Positions 1,553 to 22,176 of a DNA stretch of 47,784 nucleotides are shown here, piece by piece. Below the pieces are notes generated by a model. It searched no databases and had not been told where the DNA came from. It worked only from the letters and a program-made list of their open reading frames with translations. Within the stretch, counting starts at the first letter, position 1; each line of letters starts with the position of its first letter. Position numbers and translations under genes: made by a program. Origin of the DNA: a virus (taxonomy: Duplodnaviria > Heunggongvirae > Uroviricota > Caudoviricetes); IMG/VR virus record IMGVR_UViG_2706794696_000014; one strand, 5' to 3'.

Positions 1553-1813
1553 TCACGAGGACTGAAGTTTCTCGCAATTAAAATTTATCAGTTTTACTTT
1601 CTGCTCTCTGGAAACGCCTGCTTCTTTTTTACCTGAGAGCATTTTTTCGCATTCTGATTTCGTTAGTTTAGATTTTGAATATCTTGTCCAGTTAGTAGGA
1701 GTGCCACCTTCCTTTTCAATAGTGGCGGTAATTTTATACATGAACACCTCCATTATTATTTCCAGTGGTTCGTTTATTTCATCGTTCGAGTGCTTCTTTT
1801 TCACTTCCACCAT
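1553..1813 (-). CDS. ydaC: Small Rac prophage protein YdaC-like (function unknown)
   Basis: 86-aa ORF between xis and recT, overlapping the 3' end of the ralR-like ORF; position matches ydaC. Confidence 0.6.
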   Translation of the reverse strand: MVEVKKKHSNDEINEPLEIIMEVFMYKITATIEKEGGTPTNWTRYSKSKLTKSECEKMLSGKKEAGVSREQKVKLINFNCEKLQSS

Positions 1814-5837: not shown

Positions 5838-6014
5838 TTAAAGTTCATGTGCCATCTGGTCTTTTTCGGCACAAGCTTCACTGCAATATTTTCTCGGTTC
5901 GTCTTTTGATAAAATCCCGTGCATGAAGTGAAGCATTCTTTCAATAGCTTTGCTTTCTTCAACGTCTTTTTTGCAAAGGTGGTAAGCACATTTTATTTTC
6001 TTAGTCATCACCAT
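5838..6014 (-). CDS. ydaE: Small Cys-rich (zinc-ribbon-like) protein YdaE-like, 58 aa
   Basis: Manually translated: [58 protein letters not shown]; two CxxC-type pairs; overlaps the 3' end of kilR; below the ORF-track length cut-off. Confidence 0.65.
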
Positions 6015-6229
6015 GACTCCGCCTTTACAGGTAAACCATCACGACCGAGGAAGACTTTAATCATGCGGTCAGTAATGCATGTTTTTGTGGTCAGGTTACG
6101 AATATATAGTTTTCGCTTTTTAATATTGTTTGCCGAGGCAATATATGTCCGGCCTTCATGAAGAACATAATCGCCAGGAGTCACACACTGACGTGGTATT
6201 TCATCAGTTCCGAAGTGATGTGCAATCAT
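6008..6229 (-). CDS. kilR: KilR-like cell-division (FtsZ) inhibitor, 73 aa
   Basis: [35 protein letters not shown] with a GGAGA Shine-Dalgarno; position between racC/ydaE and sieB as in Rac. Confidence 0.8.
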
Positions 6230-6670
6230 AATTATCTCCATTTTTACAAATGAACTTTGTTGATGCGGTGCCTGGTGCCTCCAGGTGACTGCAACCAGTT
6301 AACAATTACAGTCGGCTTTCCCACCCAAACCAATAAGGACTAACATGACTTTTAACTGTGCCACGTGCGCTTAGCCGCATTCACCGCATCACAAAATTCA
6401 CTTTAAAAAGGGCGGACATCAGCCGAACTTCAAGAAAAAAACTGATGCCGCCAGGACTACACACAGCAATGTCGTTATTTACAACCGGAGGCGCACTCCC
6501 ACCATTTAAATTTAACAGACAAGACCGACTCTTTATGGATATCGGAAATGCGCCTTCGTGTTGTGCCCGGTTTTATTTCACCACCTCCGGGCTTCGGTGG
6601 TCTCGGCTATACCCCTACAGCGAGAGCTTGTGTTAACATTTCAATACCCTTACAGTTGAGAGTTATTGAT

Positions 6671-16308: not shown

Positions 16309-16598
16309 TGGTGAATTTACGTAAAGCGGCTAAAGGCCAGATGTGCCAGATCAGAATCCCTGGCTACTGCAATCACAATCCCGAAACCTCTGTGCTGGCG
16401 CATTACAGGCTGGCGGGGACGTGCGGAACAGCGACAAAACCACATGATATGCAGGCGGCGATAGCCTGTAGCTCATGCCACGATCTAATCGACGGGCGGG
16501 TAAAAACCAGCGATTACACCAAAGAAGAATTGCGCCTGATGCATGCTGAAGGGGTTTTTCGCACACAAGAAATCTGGAGAAAGAAAGGTCATTTATGA
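16308..16598 (+). CDS. Small Cys-rich nin-region protein (DUF1364 / YbcO-like putative nuclease), 96 aa
   Basis: 96-aa ORF with cysteine clusters (CQIRIPGYC ... CSSCHDLIDG); start overlaps the upstream stop (TAATG). Confidence 0.7.
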   Translation: MVNLRKAAKGQMCQIRIPGYCNHNPETSVLAHYRLAGTCGTATKPHDMQAAIACSSCHDLIDGRVKTSDYTKEELRLMHAEGVFRTQEIWRKKGHL

Positions 16599-17137
16599 TT
16601 TACCCAACGAATACAGGAAAAAGCGGAGAACACCTTCGCCTCACCACGCTGGAAAGTGTCTGGATTCAGGGAAAACTACGTATGTGGGGGCGCTGGTCGT
16701 ATATTGGCGGTGGCAGGTCAGGGAATATGTTCAATCAGTTGTTGGCATCCAAAAAACTGACGAAAACAGCCATTAATGAAGCCCTGCGCAGAATGAAAAA
16801 AGCGGGAATAGAGAAAGCTGAGCTGGAAGCGTTTTTGCGAGAGATGATCAACGGCAAGCAAAAGAGCTGGCTGGCGCATTGTACTGATGCAGAGGCGTTA
16901 TGTATTGATCGAGTCATAAGTGAGGTGCTGGCAGAGCATCCAGGATTGATTTGCATTCTCCGGCAACGCTATGAAGGGCGGGGGATGACTAAGCGCAAAA
17001 TGGCTGAATTGCTAAATGATGCACACCCAGAGTGGTGTTTTAGCACATGCGAAAAACGGATTGCTAATTGGTTAGCTGTTGCTGAGTATGCCCTATATAT
17101 TCCCATGCGTGAATCATTTGCTGAGAAAATGGCTTGA
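16595..17137 (+). CDS. Late-gene antitermination protein Q-like, 180 aa
   Basis: Last gene before a tR'-like terminator and the lysis cassette; start overlaps the previous stop; size and position fit a lambdoid Q. The specific Q family is not certain. Confidence 0.65.
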   Translation: MIYPTNTGKSGEHLRLTTLESVWIQGKLRMWGRWSYIGGGRSGNMFNQLLASKKLTKTAINEALRRMKKAGIEKAELEAFLREMINGKQKSWLAHCTDAEALCIDRVISEVLAEHPGLICILRQRYEGRGMTKRKMAELLNDAHPEWCFSTCEKRIANWLAVAEYALYIPMRESFAEKMA

Positions 17138-17217
17138 TTTCTTACGTATAAACTGCTTCAATTTTGCTATGCTTCGCAAAGCTGTATCGCGAGGCGGATT
17201 GCAGACATGGACATCGT
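17138..17217 (+). promoter_or_regulatory. Putative Q-dependent late promoter (pR'-like) and qut region
   Basis: About 80 bp between the Q stop and a strong intrinsic terminator; contains TTGCTA ... TATCGC-like hexamers; assigned by position only. Confidence 0.25.
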
Positions 17218-17245
17218 AAAAAAACCGCTTAATGCGGTTTTTTTA
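17218..17245 (+). terminator. Rho-independent terminator (tR'-like) downstream of Q
   Basis: AAAAAAACCGCttaatGCGGTTTTTTT: 6-bp GC stem, 5-nt loop, A-tract before and T-tract after. Confidence 0.7.
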
Positions 17246-17562
17246 CGTCAGGAAAGCAGGGGAGAATGCTGCTAGTTGGGCAACTGGTCTTTCTGCTCCA
17301 AATTATAACAGAGACCAGTTATAGTTTCGGTGCTGTGTTTTTTTTACAATATTGTGATAACACATTGCTGGCGGGAGTTTTGATATTTCTTGGCAGGGGC
17401 TGATGATGCGTTATCCTGATGTCGTCAACTCATATAAAATGAGATGAGAGATCATTGCAGGGTGGTTTGTAATTCGCTGTTTAGCGGGACAATATGTTGT
17501 CTGATACAAGACACCCGACGCCTCAGATTACTATAATAAAGACGAAGCATCCTTTGTATTGA

Positions 17563-17592
17563 CCAACCGCCTGTTTAGGCGGTTCTTTTTGG
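17563..17592 (+). terminator. Rho-independent terminator-like hairpin
   Basis: ACCGCCT-gttt-AGGCGGT followed by TCTTTTT. Confidence 0.5.
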
Positions 17593-18181
17593 GCTGGTTT
17601 ATTGTATGCCAAATGATTATTAAAAAGGTTGTGTTAATAACAAGATCCGAAATAATATGCCTGCATATTTTTATCTTGCTTATATTCTGCATATTGTGCA
17701 TAGCAGGCTCATCCCTGCAATCAAAACTGTATGATGAGTATTTTTTGTTTTCCTTTTTTCCAGTCATCTGATGATGACCTGCTTCTTTTTAATCCGGATC
17801 GACATCAGTTTTTTAAGATAATTCCTGCGAGTTATATGCATAAATGCCACAAACTCCGCATTTTATGTGGTTGGGAGTTGCCGGGCGCGCAGTGAGTTTG
17901 CTAAGAAAACTCCTGCATGGTGAATCCCCCTGTGCGGTGGGGTGATACCATTAACCTTTTCTGTCGCCGACAGGTATCACGAACATTTTGTTCACCGGGA
18001 GGCACCCGGCACCATGCACTTCAATAGATTCTCTCCACATTATGGATATTCTTTCAGAATATCCCACGCAGACTTTGTGTAAATGTTAACAAATGTGCGT
18101 TTTATTTGATCTGATTCGCTGTTTGAGCGTCCAAAACAACGGTATATATAATCCTTTACTATATGACATATGTGAGGAAAA

Positions 18182-18610
18182 ATGGGTTTTCGTAGCGCAT
18201 CAATTCTTACGTTGATTATTAGTGGGATTATTATCGGGTGCACTGATGCTGTATCGACAAATTATCATGACCGTACATCATATTACTCCGATAAAGCAAT
18301 AGAGACACAGTATGTGAGTTCATCTGAACGTACTTCTGATGTTAGTGAGGATATCCGTCTGTATGCCCATCAAATCAAGAGCGCCATCGAAAAACAGTTC
18401 GGGGATGCGAGTAAGTATTCAGGAAAAGAGTGTACACTGAGAATGCATATGGCCCCGAATGGCCTTCTACTGGAGGTTAAAAGAGAAAGTGGAGACCTCG
18501 ATTTATGTCGTGAAGCGATGAATGCGATAAAGAATGCTGATATACCTGCCCCCCCTTCGCCGGAAGTATATAAAGTATTTCAAAATGGGGTGCTGGATTT
18601 TAAACCCTGA
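18182..18610 (+). CDS. Lipoprotein with a C-terminal TolA domain III-like region (moron), 142 aa
   Basis: Signal peptide plus lipobox (LIISGIIIGC); C-terminal YAHQIKSAIEKQFGDASKYSGKECTLRMHMAPNGLLLEVKRESGDLDLCREAMNAIKNADIPAPPSPEVYKVFQNGVLDFKP closely resembles the C-terminus of E. coli TolA as I remember it. Confidence 0.7.
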   Translation: MGFRSASILTLIISGIIIGCTDAVSTNYHDRTSYYSDKAIETQYVSSSERTSDVSEDIRLYAHQIKSAIEKQFGDASKYSGKECTLRMHMAPNGLLLEVKRESGDLDLCREAMNAIKNADIPAPPSPEVYKVFQNGVLDFKP

Positions 18611-18760
18611 TATTTATTGTTTTGTAATAAACGGTTTCGGCTTAGGTTTGTTCTGACACAGCTACGGCACTGAGCTAAATTTAGCGGATAGTCAGCTCTG
18701 AGCCAGTGGCGGACGTAACAACTACTATTGCTGAGATTTTAATGGATTGAGGAGCAAGAA

Positions 18761-19156
18761 GTGGGATTAAAGAAAATCGTTATGTTGACTTTTTGGGTCG
18801 GTTTTGTTGCGGGATGCACACCTTTACACCCTTCAGATTGCCACAAAACTACTGCTACAGGTAGTTGCAGTTCAGGACGCTGGGATGATCAGGATGAATG
18901 GGGGGCGCAAGCGCGGGGAATCAGAGCTGCAATTAATGCCAAACTTGATGAGCCGCATAACTGGAAAGGGAAAAAATGCAGGTTGCATATGGAATTCTCT
19001 CAGGATGGCACGGCGTTAAAAATATCTACCAGTAACGGTGATAAAGCCTATTGCGAAGCGATAAAGTCCGCAGCTCATAAAGCCAAATTTCCGGCCTTCA
19101 ACAATCCGGAAGTCTACAGAGATTTTCAGAAATCTGGCTTTGACATGCGAGGTTAG
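18761..19156 (+). CDS. Second, diverged paralogous lipoprotein with TolA-III-like C-terminus, 131 aa (GTG start)
   Basis: Lipobox VAGC; GAGGAG Shine-Dalgarno; shares the motifs I..AI..K...GKKC.LHM..S.DG..L.I....GD...C.A...A...AKFPA...PEVY..FQ with the upstream gene. Confidence 0.65.
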   Translation: MGLKKIVMLTFWVGFVAGCTPLHPSDCHKTTATGSCSSGRWDDQDEWGAQARGIRAAINAKLDEPHNWKGKKCRLHMEFSQDGTALKISTSNGDKAYCEAIKSAAHKAKFPAFNNPEVYRDFQKSGFDMRG

Positions 19157-19279
19157 CTCTTCAATTACTATATCTCATTCATAGCAAACTGACAGATTTG
19201 ATGATGTTCTATATACGAAACCTGTGATGTCAAGTCTGAGCTAATACAAATAAACATAATATCAGAGAAATACATTTTA

Positions 19280-19305
19280 TTAGCTCGCTACGGCGAGCTT
19301 TTTAT
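19280..19305 (+). terminator. Rho-independent terminator after the lipoprotein pair
   Basis: AGCTCGC-tacg-GCGAGCT followed by TTTTTAT. Confidence 0.6.
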
Positions 19306-19407
19306 ATTGCATCGTCTCCAGCATATATATCAATTAAGGCTCTGATTGATGTGTCTGAAAGCCTACACATAATAACTATGCCATCCGTTCCGTGCGGAGG
19401 TGAGGCT

Positions 19408-19623
19408 ATGAAATCCATGGACAAAATTTCAACAGGCATTGCCTACGGCACCTCCGCAGGCAGTGCTGGCTACTGGTTTTTACAGTTGCTCGATAGAGTA
19501 ACTCCGTCACAGTGGGCTGCAATCGGTGTGCTGGGTAGTCTGGTATTTGGCCTGCTGACGTACCTGACAAACCTTTATTTCAAGATTAAAGAAGATAAGC
19601 GCAAGGCTGCGAGAGGTGAATAA
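19408..19623 (+). CDS. Pinholin (phage 21 S21-like, class II holin) with dual-start motif, 71 aa
   Basis: [71 protein letters not shown]; two TM helices; Met1-Lys-Ser-Met4 dual start; GGAGG Shine-Dalgarno. Confidence 0.85.
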
Positions 19624-20120
19624 TGCCTCCATCATTACGAAAAGTCGTTGCTGCTGCTATTGGTGGCGGAGCAATTGCTATAGCATCAGTGTTAATCACT
19701 GGCCCAAGTGGTAACGATGGTCTGGAAGGTGTCAGCTACATACCATACAAAGATATTGTTGGTGTATGGACTGTATGTCACGGGCATACAGGAAAAGACA
19801 TCATGCTCGGTAAAACGTATACCAAAGCAGAATGCAAAACACTCTTGAATAAAGACCTTGCCACTGTCGCCAGACAAATTAACCCGTACATCAAAGTCGA
19901 TATACCGGAAACAACGCGCGGCGCTCTTTACTCATTCGTTTACAACGTGGGTGCTGGCAATTTCAGAACATCGACGCTTCTTCGCAAAATAAACCAGGGC
20001 GATATCAAAGGCGCATGTGATCAGCTACGGCGCTGGACATACGCTGGCGGTAAGCAATGGAAAGGTCTCATGACTCGTCGTGAGATTGAGCGTGAAATCT
20101 GTTTGTGGGGTCAGCAATGA
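19623..20120 (+). CDS. SAR endolysin (phage lysozyme with N-terminal signal-anchor-release domain), 165 aa
   Basis: Gly/Ala-rich weakly hydrophobic N-terminus ([20 protein letters not shown]) followed by a lysozyme-like catalytic region; start overlaps the holin stop (TAATG). Confidence 0.85.
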
Positions 20121-20581
20121 ACAGAGTAACCGCGATTATCTCCGCTCTGGTTATCTGCATCATCGTCTGCCTGTCATGGGCTGTTAATCATTACCGTGAT
20201 AACGCCATTACCTACAAAGCCCAGCGCGACAAAAATGCCAGAGAACTGAAGCTGGCGAACGCGGCAATTACTGACATGCAGATGCGTCAGCGTGATGTTG
20301 CTGCGCTCGATGCAAAATACACGAAGGAGTTAGCTGATGCGAAAGCTGAAAATGATGCTCTGCGTGATGATGTTGCCGCTGGTCGTCGTCGGTTGCACAT
20401 CAAAGCAGTCTGTCAGTCAGTGCGTGAAGCCACCACCGCCTCCGGCGTGGATAATGCAGCCTCCCCCCGACTGGCAGACACCGCTGAACGGGATTATTTC
20501 ACCCTCCGGGAACGACTGGTAATGATGCAGGCCCAACTTGAAGGTGCTCAGCAATACATAACCGAGCAGTGTTTAAAGTAA
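20117..20581 (+). CDS. Rz-like i-spanin, 153 aa
   Basis: N-terminal TM helix and coiled-coil periplasmic domain; start overlaps the endolysin stop (ATGA). Confidence 0.8.
20337..20522 (+). CDS. Rz1-like o-spanin lipoprotein, 61 aa, embedded in the +1 frame inside Rz
   Basis: [24 protein letters not shown]... with lipobox VVGC and a proline-rich stretch ([15 protein letters not shown]); AAGGAG Shine-Dalgarno inside Rz. Confidence 0.8.
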
Positions 20582-20718
20582 AATCTTAACTACAATATGA
20601 TTCATTTTGATGATTGTTTCATAAGGAACAGTGAAGTAAGATCTAAGAGGAGTTAAATTTTATACAGTATAATCATAATATTGCAGCAAGGTGGTTATAA
20701 TTGAAAGAATATTTAGAT

Positions 20719-22176
20719 ATGAATACATCTCATGTAAGAGTTGTTACTCATATGTGTGGGTTCCTGGTTTGGCTCTATAGTCTTTCAATGTTGCCACCAA
20801 TGGTTGTAGCATTGTTTTATAAAGAAAAAAGCCTGTTCGTTTTCTTTATAACTTTCGTTATATTTTTTTGCATTGGTGGCGGAGCGTGGTATACAACTAA
20901 GAAATCTGGCATTCAATTACGTACCCGTGATGGGTTTATTATAATTGTAATGTTTTGGATTTTGTTTTCTGTTATTAGTGCATTCCCTTTATGGATTGAC
21001 TCAGAACTTAATTTAACGTTCATTGATGCTCTGTTTGAAGGGGTTTCTGGAATAACAACAACAGGAGCAACTGTAATTGATGATGTTAGTTCATTACCTC
21101 GGGCATATTTGTACTATCGGTCACAGTTAAATTTTATAGGTGGTTTAGGAGTTATTGTTCTGGCGGTTGCAGTATTGCCATTATTGGGTATTGGTGGTGC
21201 AAAGCTTTATCAGTCAGAAATGCCGGGGCCATTTAAGGATGACAAACTCACTCCCCGCCTGGCCGATACGTCACGGACACTGTGGATAACTTATTCTTTA
21301 TTAGGTATTGCTTGTATTGTCTGTTATAGACTTGCAGGAATGCCTTTGTTTGATGCTATTTGTCACGGGATTTCCACAGTTTCGCTTGGTGGTTTCTCAA
21401 CTCATAGCGAGAGTATCGGATATTTTAATAACTATTTGGTTGAGCTGGTGGCTGGTTCTTTTTCCCTGCTATCGGCTTTCAACTTCACTCTTTGGTATAT
21501 TGTTATTAGCAGAAAAACGATAAAACCTTTAATCAGAGATATTGAACTTCGTTTCTTTCTGTTAATAGCCTTAGGGGTGATCATTGTTACCTCTTTCCAG
21601 GTCTGGCATATAGGTATGTATGACTTGCATGGAAGTTTTATTCATTCGTTTTTTCTTGCCAGCTCCATGCTCACTGATAATGGTTTAGCTACGCAGGATT
21701 ATGCAAACTGGCCCACGCACACGATAGTGTTTTTGCTGTTGTCAAGTTTCTTTGGGGGATGTATAGGTTCAACCTGTGGTGGAATTAAGTCACTTCGATT
21801 TCTTATACTTTTCAAACAAAGCAAACACGAGATAAATCAGCTTTCTCATCCCAGAGCGTTGTTGAGTGTAAATGTAGGAGGGAAGATAGTTACAGATCGT
21901 GTAATGAGGTCTGTATGGAGTTTCTTTTTTCTTTATACTCTCTTCACGGTGTTTTTTATACTGGTGTTAAATGGTATGGGATATGATTTTCTTACATCAT
22001 TTGCAACAGTGGCTGCATGTATTAATAATATGGGATTAGGTTTTGGGGCTACTGCATCGTCATTCGGAGTGCTTAATGACATTGCAAAATATTTAATGTG
22101 CATAGCTATGATTCTTGGTCGCCTTGAAATTTATCCTGTTATTATATTGTTTTCAGGTTTTTTTTGGCGCTCCTAA
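20719..22176 (+). CDS. trkG: Trk-system potassium uptake protein TrkG (TrkH/TrkG family), 485 aa
   Basis: Polytopic membrane protein starting MNTSHVRVVTHMCGFLVWLYSLSMLPPMVVALFYKEK; AT-rich codon usage; sits right after the lysis cassette as in Rac. Confidence 0.85.
   Translation: MNTSHVRVVTHMCGFLVWLYSLSMLPPMVVALFYKEKSLFVFFITFVIFFCIGGGAWYTTKKSGIQLRTRDGFIIIVMFWILFSVISAFPLWIDSELNLTFIDALFEGVSGITTTGATVIDDVSSLPRAYLYYRSQLNFIGGLGVIVLAVAVLPLLGIGGAKLYQSEMPGPFKDDKLTPRLADTSRTLWITYSLLGIACIVCYRLAGMPLFDAICHGISTVSLGGFSTHSESIGYFNNYLVELVAGSFSLLSAFNFTLWYIVISRKTIKPLIRDIELRFFLLIALGVIIVTSFQVWHIGMYDLHGSFIHSFFLASSMLTDNGLATQDYANWPTHTIVFLLLSSFFGGCIGSTCGGIKSLRFLILFKQSKHEINQLSHPRALLSVNVGGKIVTDRVMRSVWSFFFLYTLFTVFFILVLNGMGYDFLTSFATVAACINNMGLGFGATASSFGVLNDIAKYLMCIAMILGRLEIYPVIILFSGFFWRS

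Follow-up and report, generated by a model that had tools for sequence, protein, structure and literature searches.

TolA domain III lipoproteins encoded between the antiterminator and lysis genes of a lambdoid prophage as candidate decoy co-receptors

We examined a 47,784-nucleotide stretch of viral DNA (Caudoviricetes; IMG/VR record IMGVR_UViG_2706794696_000014), referred to as the window, and found two neighboring open reading frames (ORFs) on its + strand that each encode a complete C-terminal domain of TolA (domain III, or TolA-III) joined by a linker to a lipoprotein signal peptide. The window represents an almost complete lambdoid prophage of the Rac/mEp460-like type, with the integrase gene at its left end and head and tail genes rightward. 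The two genes, here called ORF A and ORF B, lie between a gene for a Q-like antiterminator and the lysis genes. A sequence-only reading of the same DNA had noticed two lipobox-bearing ORFs at this place, had likened their C-terminal halves to TolA-III, and had proposed that they could serve as decoys for Tol-dependent phages or colicins or interfere with Tol-Pal. Both lipoboxes are present (IIG-C20 in ORF A and VAG-C19 in ORF B), and domain searches, alignments and structural superpositions bear out the likeness. The pair is a real, well-defined and misannotated feature, in which a known domain takes on a new architecture and probably also a new function.

Architecture of the two lipoproteins

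The ORF A protein (142 amino acids) begins with MGFRSASILTLIISGIIIG immediately before Cys20, an N-terminus that contains an Arg in the n-region, a hydrophobic core, and the lipobox I-I-G-C. Cys20 is followed by Thr-Asp, and the residue at position +2 is consequently Thr rather than Asp. Variants with 65–91% identity retain the lipobox, and the length of 142 amino acids is constant among variants that are 65–100% identical. In a Pfam search the protein matches PF06519, the TolA C-terminal family, with 82.6 bits (E 2.4e-23; gathering threshold 25 bits), and the solved TolA-III chains of Escherichia coli (1S62, 1TOL, 3QDP, 2X9A) match it with E-values of about 1e-27. Alignment with residues 334–421 of E. 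coli TolA gives 52 identities in 88 positions (59%). AlphaFold assigns a predicted local distance difference test (pLDDT) score below 50 to residues 18–52 and of about 90 or higher to the domain formed by residues 55–142. Using Foldseek, this domain superimposes on 2X9A_B and 1TOL with a root-mean-square deviation (rmsd) of 0.6–0.7 Å over 86 residues at 60% identity, and on TolA-III of the g3p and colicin A complexes (2X9A, 1TOL, 3QDP) at 0.6–1.7 Å. C84 and C109 form the disulfide pair, and the beta3 strand, GVLDFKP, is the C-terminal end of the protein.

ORF B (131 amino acids) starts with GTG, and the Shine-Dalgarno sequence GAGGAG lies 6 nucleotides 5' of this codon. Its N-terminus is MGLKKIVMLTFWVGFVAG followed by Cys19 of the lipobox V-A-G-C, and then by Thr-Pro. 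The match to PF06519 scores 54.6 bits (E 1.3e-14), and the same four solved chains are matched with E-values of about 5e-9. The pLDDT is about 90 or higher for residues 40–131 and low for residues 1–38. Superposition on 3QDP, 3QDR, 2X9A and 1TOL gives an rmsd of 1.0–1.3 Å at 31–32% identity. The disulfide pair is C73/C98, and the beta3 strand SGFDMRG again forms the C-terminal end. With 27 of 88 residues identical to TolA 334–421 (31%), ORF B is the more diverged of the two copies, as had been read from the sequence. Between its signal peptide and TolA-III domain lies a segment (residues 20–45) with the motif PLHPSxCHKTTATGSCSSGRWDDQDEWG, which includes two additional conserved Cys residues. 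This motif is common to homologues from Escherichia, Enterobacter, Serratia, Citrobacter, and Klebsiella, where the ratio of nonsynonymous to synonymous substitution rates (dN/dS) is 0.11–0.18.

With 29% identity between them (E 2e-18), ORF A and ORF B are distant paralogues. In both proteins the Cys pair corresponding to C363/C388 of TolA is invariant, and both end flush with TolA P421. A Pfam search of the two returns TolA and TonB-type models only. Against the equivalog models for full TolA, both fall below the cut-off of NF007065 (107.8 and 53.7 bits for ORF A and ORF B; cut-off 213 bits). With TIGR02794 (cut-off 59.45 bits) ORF A scores 75.6, which is above the cut-off but through its C-terminal part only, and ORF B scores 47.2, which is below it. 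The match to full TolA is restricted to model positions 293–386 of 387. Neither protein has the transmembrane domain I or the Lys/Ala-rich helical domain II; a linker of 25–35 residues, predicted to be disordered, precedes the folded domain. ORF A and ORF B therefore belong to the TolA C-terminal domain family without being bona fide TolA: they lack domains I and II, are located in a prophage late region rather than in a tolQRAB-pal operon, and score below the cut-off of NF007065.

The N-termini of both proteins conform to a PROSITE-style lipobox rule ([LVI][ASTVI][GAS]C, together with a charged n-region and a hydrophobic core). Neither carries Asp at position +2, the signal for retention in the inner membrane, and both are therefore predicted to be anchored in the outer membrane. 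The sequence-only reading had described the proteins as membrane-anchored; the +2 residues place the predicted anchor in the outer membrane and not in the inner one.

In the TolA-III part dN/dS is 0.09–0.34 among A variants and 0.06–0.17 among B variants. Within A, the linker evolves fastest, at a ratio of 0.4–0.8. These figures establish that A-type and B-type genes are maintained under purifying selection.

Current annotation obscures both genes. In RefSeq the annotation pipeline PGAP labels ORF A a pseudogene, 'tolA, incomplete, missing N-terminus' (NZ_CP033250.1, window 18350–18610), and starts ORF B at an internal ATG at 18782 (NZ_CP033250.1, 18782–19156), by which the charged n-region of the signal peptide is lost. 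The codon that is GTG in ORF B is an ATG start in plasmid homologues. Both the pseudogene call and the internal start are annotation artifacts. As a result, many genomes contain no protein record for ORF A, and the family is hidden from protein-based surveys.

An exhaustive HMMER search with ORF B against 1.84 billion cluster representatives returned 130 proteins at E ≤ 1e-3, including 68 full-looking representatives of 105–170 amino acids. A lipobox satisfying the strict rule is present in at least 46 of these 68, and six more were recognized by eye; Asp at position +2 occurs in none of the 46. Most of the 68 end in a TolA-like C-terminus ([LIV]-[DN]-[FLM]-[KRQ]-x), and the same architecture recurs across dozens of 50%-identity clusters. 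The TolA-III-only lipoproteins therefore make up a family of considerable size, carried for the most part on mobile elements. Two long proteins from the search, P0205 (804 amino acids) and P0216 (2512 amino acids), contain 11 and 6 separate TolA-III-like stretches, respectively, and could be multi-domain repeat proteins or assembly artifacts. ORF A and ORF B both belong to PHROG 5772 (phrog_5772), which is annotated 'unknown function', and neither has a match among the viral structures of BFVD.

Distribution on prophages, plasmids and chromosomes

Of 5426 complete E. coli genomes, 775 contain the cassette at 99% identity or higher, and 1340 match some part of it. E. coli K-12 is not known to carry these genes. 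Among 50,697 GenBank phage genomes there is one carrier, mEp460_ev081, and a scan of IMG/VR found essentially identical copies. In mEp460_ev081 the block containing both genes (window 17894–19624) is 96.9% identical, while the Q and lysis genes differ. Comparison with phages carrying other Q and lysis genes delimits the shared modules as 17805–18611 for A alone, 18724–19159 for B alone, and 17894–19624 for the two together. The pair is inserted between conserved modules and has no counterpart in related phages, which is one of the marks of a moron. Its place between the Q-like gene and the P21-type lysis genes agrees with the moron slot named in the sequence-only reading, and is also the slot occupied by the Shiga-toxin genes in Stx phages.

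A-type genes that are 66–91% identical occur alone in other lambdoid prophages, invariably between Q and the holin gene, and in these A-only prophages the homology to the window stops exactly at the stop codon of ORF A. The surroundings of such variants, between Q and the nanS-p, DUF1378, DUF826, and holin genes, are typical of Stx phages. In prophages with the 66%-identical variant, which have an Stx-phage-like order of Q, nanS-p and holin, a gene for an AraC-family regulator lies directly 5' of A.

B-type genes that are 78–89% identical are likewise found alone, and here the homology comprises the ORF and approximately 35 upstream bases. They are carried by about 600 plasmids of E. coli and Shigella. 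In IncI1/B/O and IncK2/Z plasmids the gene lies directly 3' of the relaxase genes nikA-nikB. On the 92–95 kb pO157-like IncF virulence plasmids a gene that is 88% identical to ORF B (5965–6396 of the locus from NZ_CP028612.1) is located between the psiB-psiA-hok leading region and toxB. B-type genes are also present on chromosomes of Enterobacter, Citrobacter, Klebsiella, and Serratia. In Serratia marcescens the gene adjoins those for a GmrSD_N-domain protein (with PADLOC matches to NsnA and PD-T4-2_A) and a HEPN-domain protein, in a small defense-island-like cluster 3' of nrdDG.

The reference IncI1 plasmid R64 has no B-type gene: nikB is followed after 36 base pairs by trbC, and no tblastn match to the plasmid is better than E 0.3. 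Its absence from R64 marks the B-type gene of I-complex plasmids as an accessory insertion.

Since A-type and B-type genes occur apart from each other in other genomes, ORF A and ORF B are separate mobile modules that have been joined in the present prophage. A local tandem duplication was considered as the origin of the pair and rejected for this reason. The two genes had been described as a paralogous pair in the sequence-only reading; this holds for their distant relationship and does not extend to a duplication in place.

A third family of TolA-III lipoproteins is encoded on about 300 IncFIB/FII plasmids of Klebsiella. Its members are 145 amino acids long, are 43% identical to TolA-III, and have the lipobox ITAC. 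In one representative (NC_022609.1; 5217–6246 and 1–2394 of the locus) the gene is directly preceded by a gene for a thioredoxin-fold protein, and genes for a Gabija-type GajA (PADLOC E 2e-217) and a UvrD-like helicase lie 3.4 kb away.

Binding surfaces and a possible decoy function

The ligands of TolA-III fall on two surfaces. The edge strand beta3 (A415–K420) binds the N1 domain of filamentous-phage g3p, colicin N, and the N-terminus of TolB by strand augmentation (PMC4339652; PMC7391070). Binding at this site depends on the backbone amides of D418 and K420 and is abolished by proline substitutions only (PMC4339652). Colicin A is bound instead at strand beta2 (L375–P380) together with K368, K379, K396, and L392, and the pair formed by Tyr58 of colicin A and Lys368 of TolA is essential (PMC3365938).

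The counterpart of TolA L417-D418-F419-K420 is LDFK in ORF A, FDMR in ORF B, and LDFR in the Klebsiella plasmid family. D418 is invariant in all three families and no proline has been introduced into beta3, while the host residue P416 is replaced everywhere, by V, G or A. Judging from these residues, ORF A and ORF B both retain the beta3 surface common to g3p, colicin N, and TolB. ORF A also keeps K379 and K396; the colicin A site survives in part in ORF A and is lost from ORF B.

The reading we favor, tentatively and at a little under an even chance, is that ORF A and ORF B act as dead-end co-receptors, that is, as motor-less TolA-III domains anchored in the outer membrane; we infer their localization, their ligand binding, and the resulting protection. 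The proteins would be exported, lipidated at the lipobox Cys, and, given that neither has Asp at position +2, carried by the Lol pathway to the outer membrane, where they would sit in the inner leaflet. A flexible linker of approximately 25–35 residues would position the TolA-III domain just beneath the outer membrane, where the translocation domains of colicins would leave the porin and where the N1 domain of g3p would arrive after pilus retraction. Since the beta3 edge strand is kept, the domain could capture these ligands by beta-strand augmentation ahead of host TolA. Captured ligands would not be pulled in, because without domains I and II there would be no coupling to the TolQ-TolR proton motor. 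This would shield the cell, and with it the resident prophage or plasmid, against filamentous phages that depend on Tol and against group A colicin-like bacteriocins.

Energized import of colicins needs TolA-III to be joined through domain II to the TolQR motor (PMC10666116), and sequestration of TolA by periplasmic g3p-N1 or full-length pIII leads to a 4-log drop in phage uptake and to resistance to colicin A (PMC10424213). The decoy reading is consistent with the retained beta3 strand, the missing domains I and II, the predicted sorting to the outer membrane, the selection on both genes, and their carriage mainly by mobile elements, including plasmids that encode I-pili. Among the explanations considered, the decoy proposed in the sequence-only reading still seems the best, refined to tethering in the outer membrane and to the class of ligands that use beta3.

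Several observations weigh against a decoy. K368 is replaced in all families (by H, Y, N or E) and ORF B in addition lacks K379 and K396, so capture of colicin A is doubtful, especially for ORF B. Because beta3 is also the site of TolB, a decoy could poison Tol-Pal. The domain of ORF B shares just 31% of its residues with E. coli TolA-III, and the model leaves the additional, strongly conserved N-terminal Cys-loop motif of ORF B unexplained. In Enterobacter the B-type genes have an ordinary chromosomal neighborhood, which could indicate a housekeeping role in the envelope. Both genes of the window lie in the late operon, and what speaks for their expression in the lysogen is a consensus match to a promoter. 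PADLOC has no family that matches either protein at E ≤ 0.01. The absence of the B-type gene from R64 neither refutes nor strongly supports the decoy reading.

The main rival to a decoy is a modulation of Tol-Pal through TolB, which we consider unlikely. A tethered TolA-III would here bind the N-terminus of TolB, alter TolB-Pal dynamics, and loosen the outer membrane, with more vesiculation, an aid to lysis and release under the Q-driven late operon, or a changed envelope of the lysogen as possible outcomes. It would fit that the beta3 site of TolB is the best-conserved surface of the domain, and mutations in TolA beta3 that block TolB binding produce a full tol phenotype (PMC4339652). A review also notes that vesicle production could be regulated via TolB interactions, but reports a weak affinity of TolA for TolB, with a dissociation constant of 40–200 µM (PMC7391070). 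The genes are located directly 5' of those for holin, endolysin, and Rz/Rz1 in the late transcript; however, the terminator between ORF B and the holin gene is typical of a lysis-independent moron, and B-type genes occur on plasmids and chromosomes that lack lysis genes. A permanent tol phenotype would be a burden to the host, and yet the 775 E. coli genomes mentioned above contain the cassette nearly unchanged.

A further possibility, which we regard as improbable, is that the proteins are envelope lipoproteins whose TolA/TonB-type fold serves in strand augmentation with a different partner, such as a host factor, an outer-membrane protein, or a component of conjugation. The gain might then lie in resistance to serum, in adhesion, or in exclusion during conjugation, comparable to the effects of Bor, Iss, and TraT. 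The low identity of ORF B to TolA-III points in this direction, as does the extra N-terminal motif of the B family (CHKTTATGSCSSGRWDDQDEWG), which is highly conserved and under purifying selection. B-type genes adjoin relaxase and trb genes in I-complex plasmids and toxB in pO157-like plasmids, and in Enterobacter they have a chromosomal, non-mobile context. On the other hand, R64 conjugates without the gene, we detected no homology of ORF A or ORF B to Bor, Iss, TraT, Llp, or Cor, and the Pfam matches are confined to TolA and TonB-type models. ORF A closely copies enterobacterial TolA-III, including the C-terminal LDFKP, and this is hard to explain unless the partners of TolA are targeted. 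Very improbable, finally, is that the ORFs are non-functional debris, namely fragments of a captured tolA gene. The PGAP label of ORF A would suggest as much, and so would its score above the tolA cut-off of TIGR02794 through the C-terminal part only. However, neither ORF is interrupted, each is preceded by a Shine-Dalgarno sequence and has gained a lipoprotein signal peptide, the length of ORF A is kept among its variants, dN/dS is well below 1, and the architecture is shared by dozens of 50%-identity clusters. Debris was rejected on the architecture and the dN/dS values.

TolA-III of E. coli itself (residues ~334–421; 1TOL, 2X9A, 3QDP/3QDR, 1S62) shares with ORF A and ORF B the Pfam family, the fold, the disulfide pair, and the C-terminal beta3 strand, and the LDFKP of ORF A is identical to that of TolA. 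In contrast to TolA, ORF A and ORF B have a signal peptide and a short linker in place of domains I and II, and hence no connection to TolQR; P416 and K368 are replaced; and the genes belong to prophages and plasmids rather than to the tol-pal operon. A soluble TolA-III expressed in the periplasm (Levengood-Freyermuth et al. 1993, J Bacteriol 175:222) reportedly rendered E. coli colicin-tolerant and leaky. That construct, like the decoy proposed here, would be a free TolA-III in the periplasm, uncoupled from the motor. It was a laboratory product, reportedly soluble, overproduced and a cause of leakiness, whereas ORF A and ORF B are natural, predicted to be lipid-anchored, diverged, and selected on mobile elements.

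Superinfection exclusion by g3p (pIII) likewise targets the interaction of g3p-N1 with TolA-III in the periplasm, and its outcome is the resistance to phages and colicins that is proposed here (PMC10424213). It is the mirror image of a decoy, in that an overproduced ligand blocks the receptor, whereas ORF A and ORF B would be copies of the receptor that absorb the ligand. Exclusion by g3p has tol-like side effects with host TolA occupied, which a decoy need not cause. Llp of phage T5, Cor of phi80/N15/mEp phages, and TraT are small outer-membrane lipoproteins of phages or plasmids, as ORF A and ORF B are predicted to be, and they protect the carrier from phage or DNA. However, they have no relation in sequence or fold to ORF A and ORF B, and they mask an outer-membrane receptor (FhuA, OmpA), whereas ORF A and ORF B would mimic a periplasmic co-receptor.

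A broader proposal, to which we give a somewhat smaller chance than to the decoy reading of the two genes, is that TolA-III-only lipoproteins constitute a widespread and unrecognized class of periplasmic receptor-mimic immunity proteins of prophages and plasmids. They would make the host immune to colicins and klebicins that depend on Tol and to filamentous phages, among them phages that exploit pili encoded by the same plasmid, with the A-type, B-type, and Klebsiella-type proteins tuned to different invaders while sparing TolB. If this is true, protection from phages and bacteriocins would come from mimicry of a periplasmic co-receptor, and not from masking or loss of a surface receptor. We found no description of such protection, and no study of TolA-III-only lipoproteins, in the full-text literature searched, which omits most subscription journals. 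Carriers of clinical relevance include E. coli genomes, pO157-like virulence plasmids, IncI-complex resistance plasmids, and Klebsiella IncF plasmids. Such proteins would bear on therapeutics based on colicins and klebicins, on hosts for phage display, on the ecology of filamentous phages, and on the fitness of resistance plasmids. They are testable by standard assays, and the ligands already exist.

One candidate observation on expression was dropped. In enterohaemorrhagic E. coli treated with ciprofloxacin, a prophage 'TolA' had appeared to be induced 32-fold; the gene in question, EDL933_2012, is a tail fiber protein in the supplement.

The prophage setting and expression signals

The features of the locus and its surroundings are listed in Table 1. 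The sigma-70-like site approximately 30 nucleotides 5' of ORF A is a candidate moron promoter from which the genes could be expressed in the lysogen. It is weak as a statistical signal, since the scan of this region found 11 sites against the 7.3 expected from shuffled sequences. The terminator that the sequence-only reading had assigned to the pair was recovered between ORF B and the holin gene. It consists of a GC-rich stem of 7 base pairs followed by UUUUUAUAUU, and its predicted folding energy is -13 kcal/mol (z -4.2), a value equaled by none of 200 shuffled sequences.

Table 1. Positions of ORF A, ORF B, and other features in the window
Feature	Position	Strand	Basis
ORF A, TolA-III lipoprotein, 142 aa	18182-18610	+	ORF list with translation
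ORF A lipoprotein signal peptide, aa 1-20, lipobox IIGC	18182-18241	+	read from sequence
ORF A linker, aa 21-54, Ser/Thr/Tyr/Asp-rich, predicted disordered	18242-18343	+	AlphaFold pLDDT
ORF A TolA-III domain, aa 55-142	18344-18607	+	AlphaFold, Foldseek, site mapping
ORF B, TolA-III lipoprotein, 131 aa, GTG start	18761-19156	+	ORF list with translation
ORF B lipoprotein signal peptide, aa 1-19, lipobox VAGC	18761-18817	+	read from sequence
ORF B conserved N-terminal segment, aa 20-45	18818-18895	+	cross-genus conservation
ORF B TolA-III domain, aa 46-131	18896-19153	+	AlphaFold, Foldseek
Sigma-70 promoter-like site, TTGAGC-18 nt-TATAAT	18123-18152	+	consensus scan, 10/12
Intrinsic terminator between ORF B and holin	19282-19299 / 19282-19309	+	terminator scan, RNA fold
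RalA antitoxin small RNA	1557-1735	+	225 bits
Q-like antiterminator (DUF1133, PHROG 753)	16595-17137		
Strong promoter-like site and hairpin terminators, probably pR'/tR'	17508-17584	+	scan
Rfam STnc100 match	17885-18071	+	86.6 bits (gathering score 47)
P21-type holin	ends 19623		
Lysozyme	19623-20120		
Rz	20105-20581		
Rz1	20337-20522		
trkG	20701-22176	+	

The probable pR'/tR' region contains a near-consensus promoter (AAGACA-18-TATAAT) with a GC-rich hairpin and T-run 28 nucleotides downstream. A further hairpin with a T-run (17213–17240, +) is located just 3' of the Q-like gene, and a weak, sub-threshold match to isrK lies at 17171–17244. The STnc100 match is directly 5' of ORF A and accompanies A in other prophages, where the start of the shared module falls at 17805–17894; it may be part of a Q-dependent late leader.

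RalA and trkG, which are hallmarks of Rac, both lie inside the prophage, with trkG directly 3' of an intact lysis cassette. This sets the present prophage apart from the Rac prophage of K-12, which is degraded.

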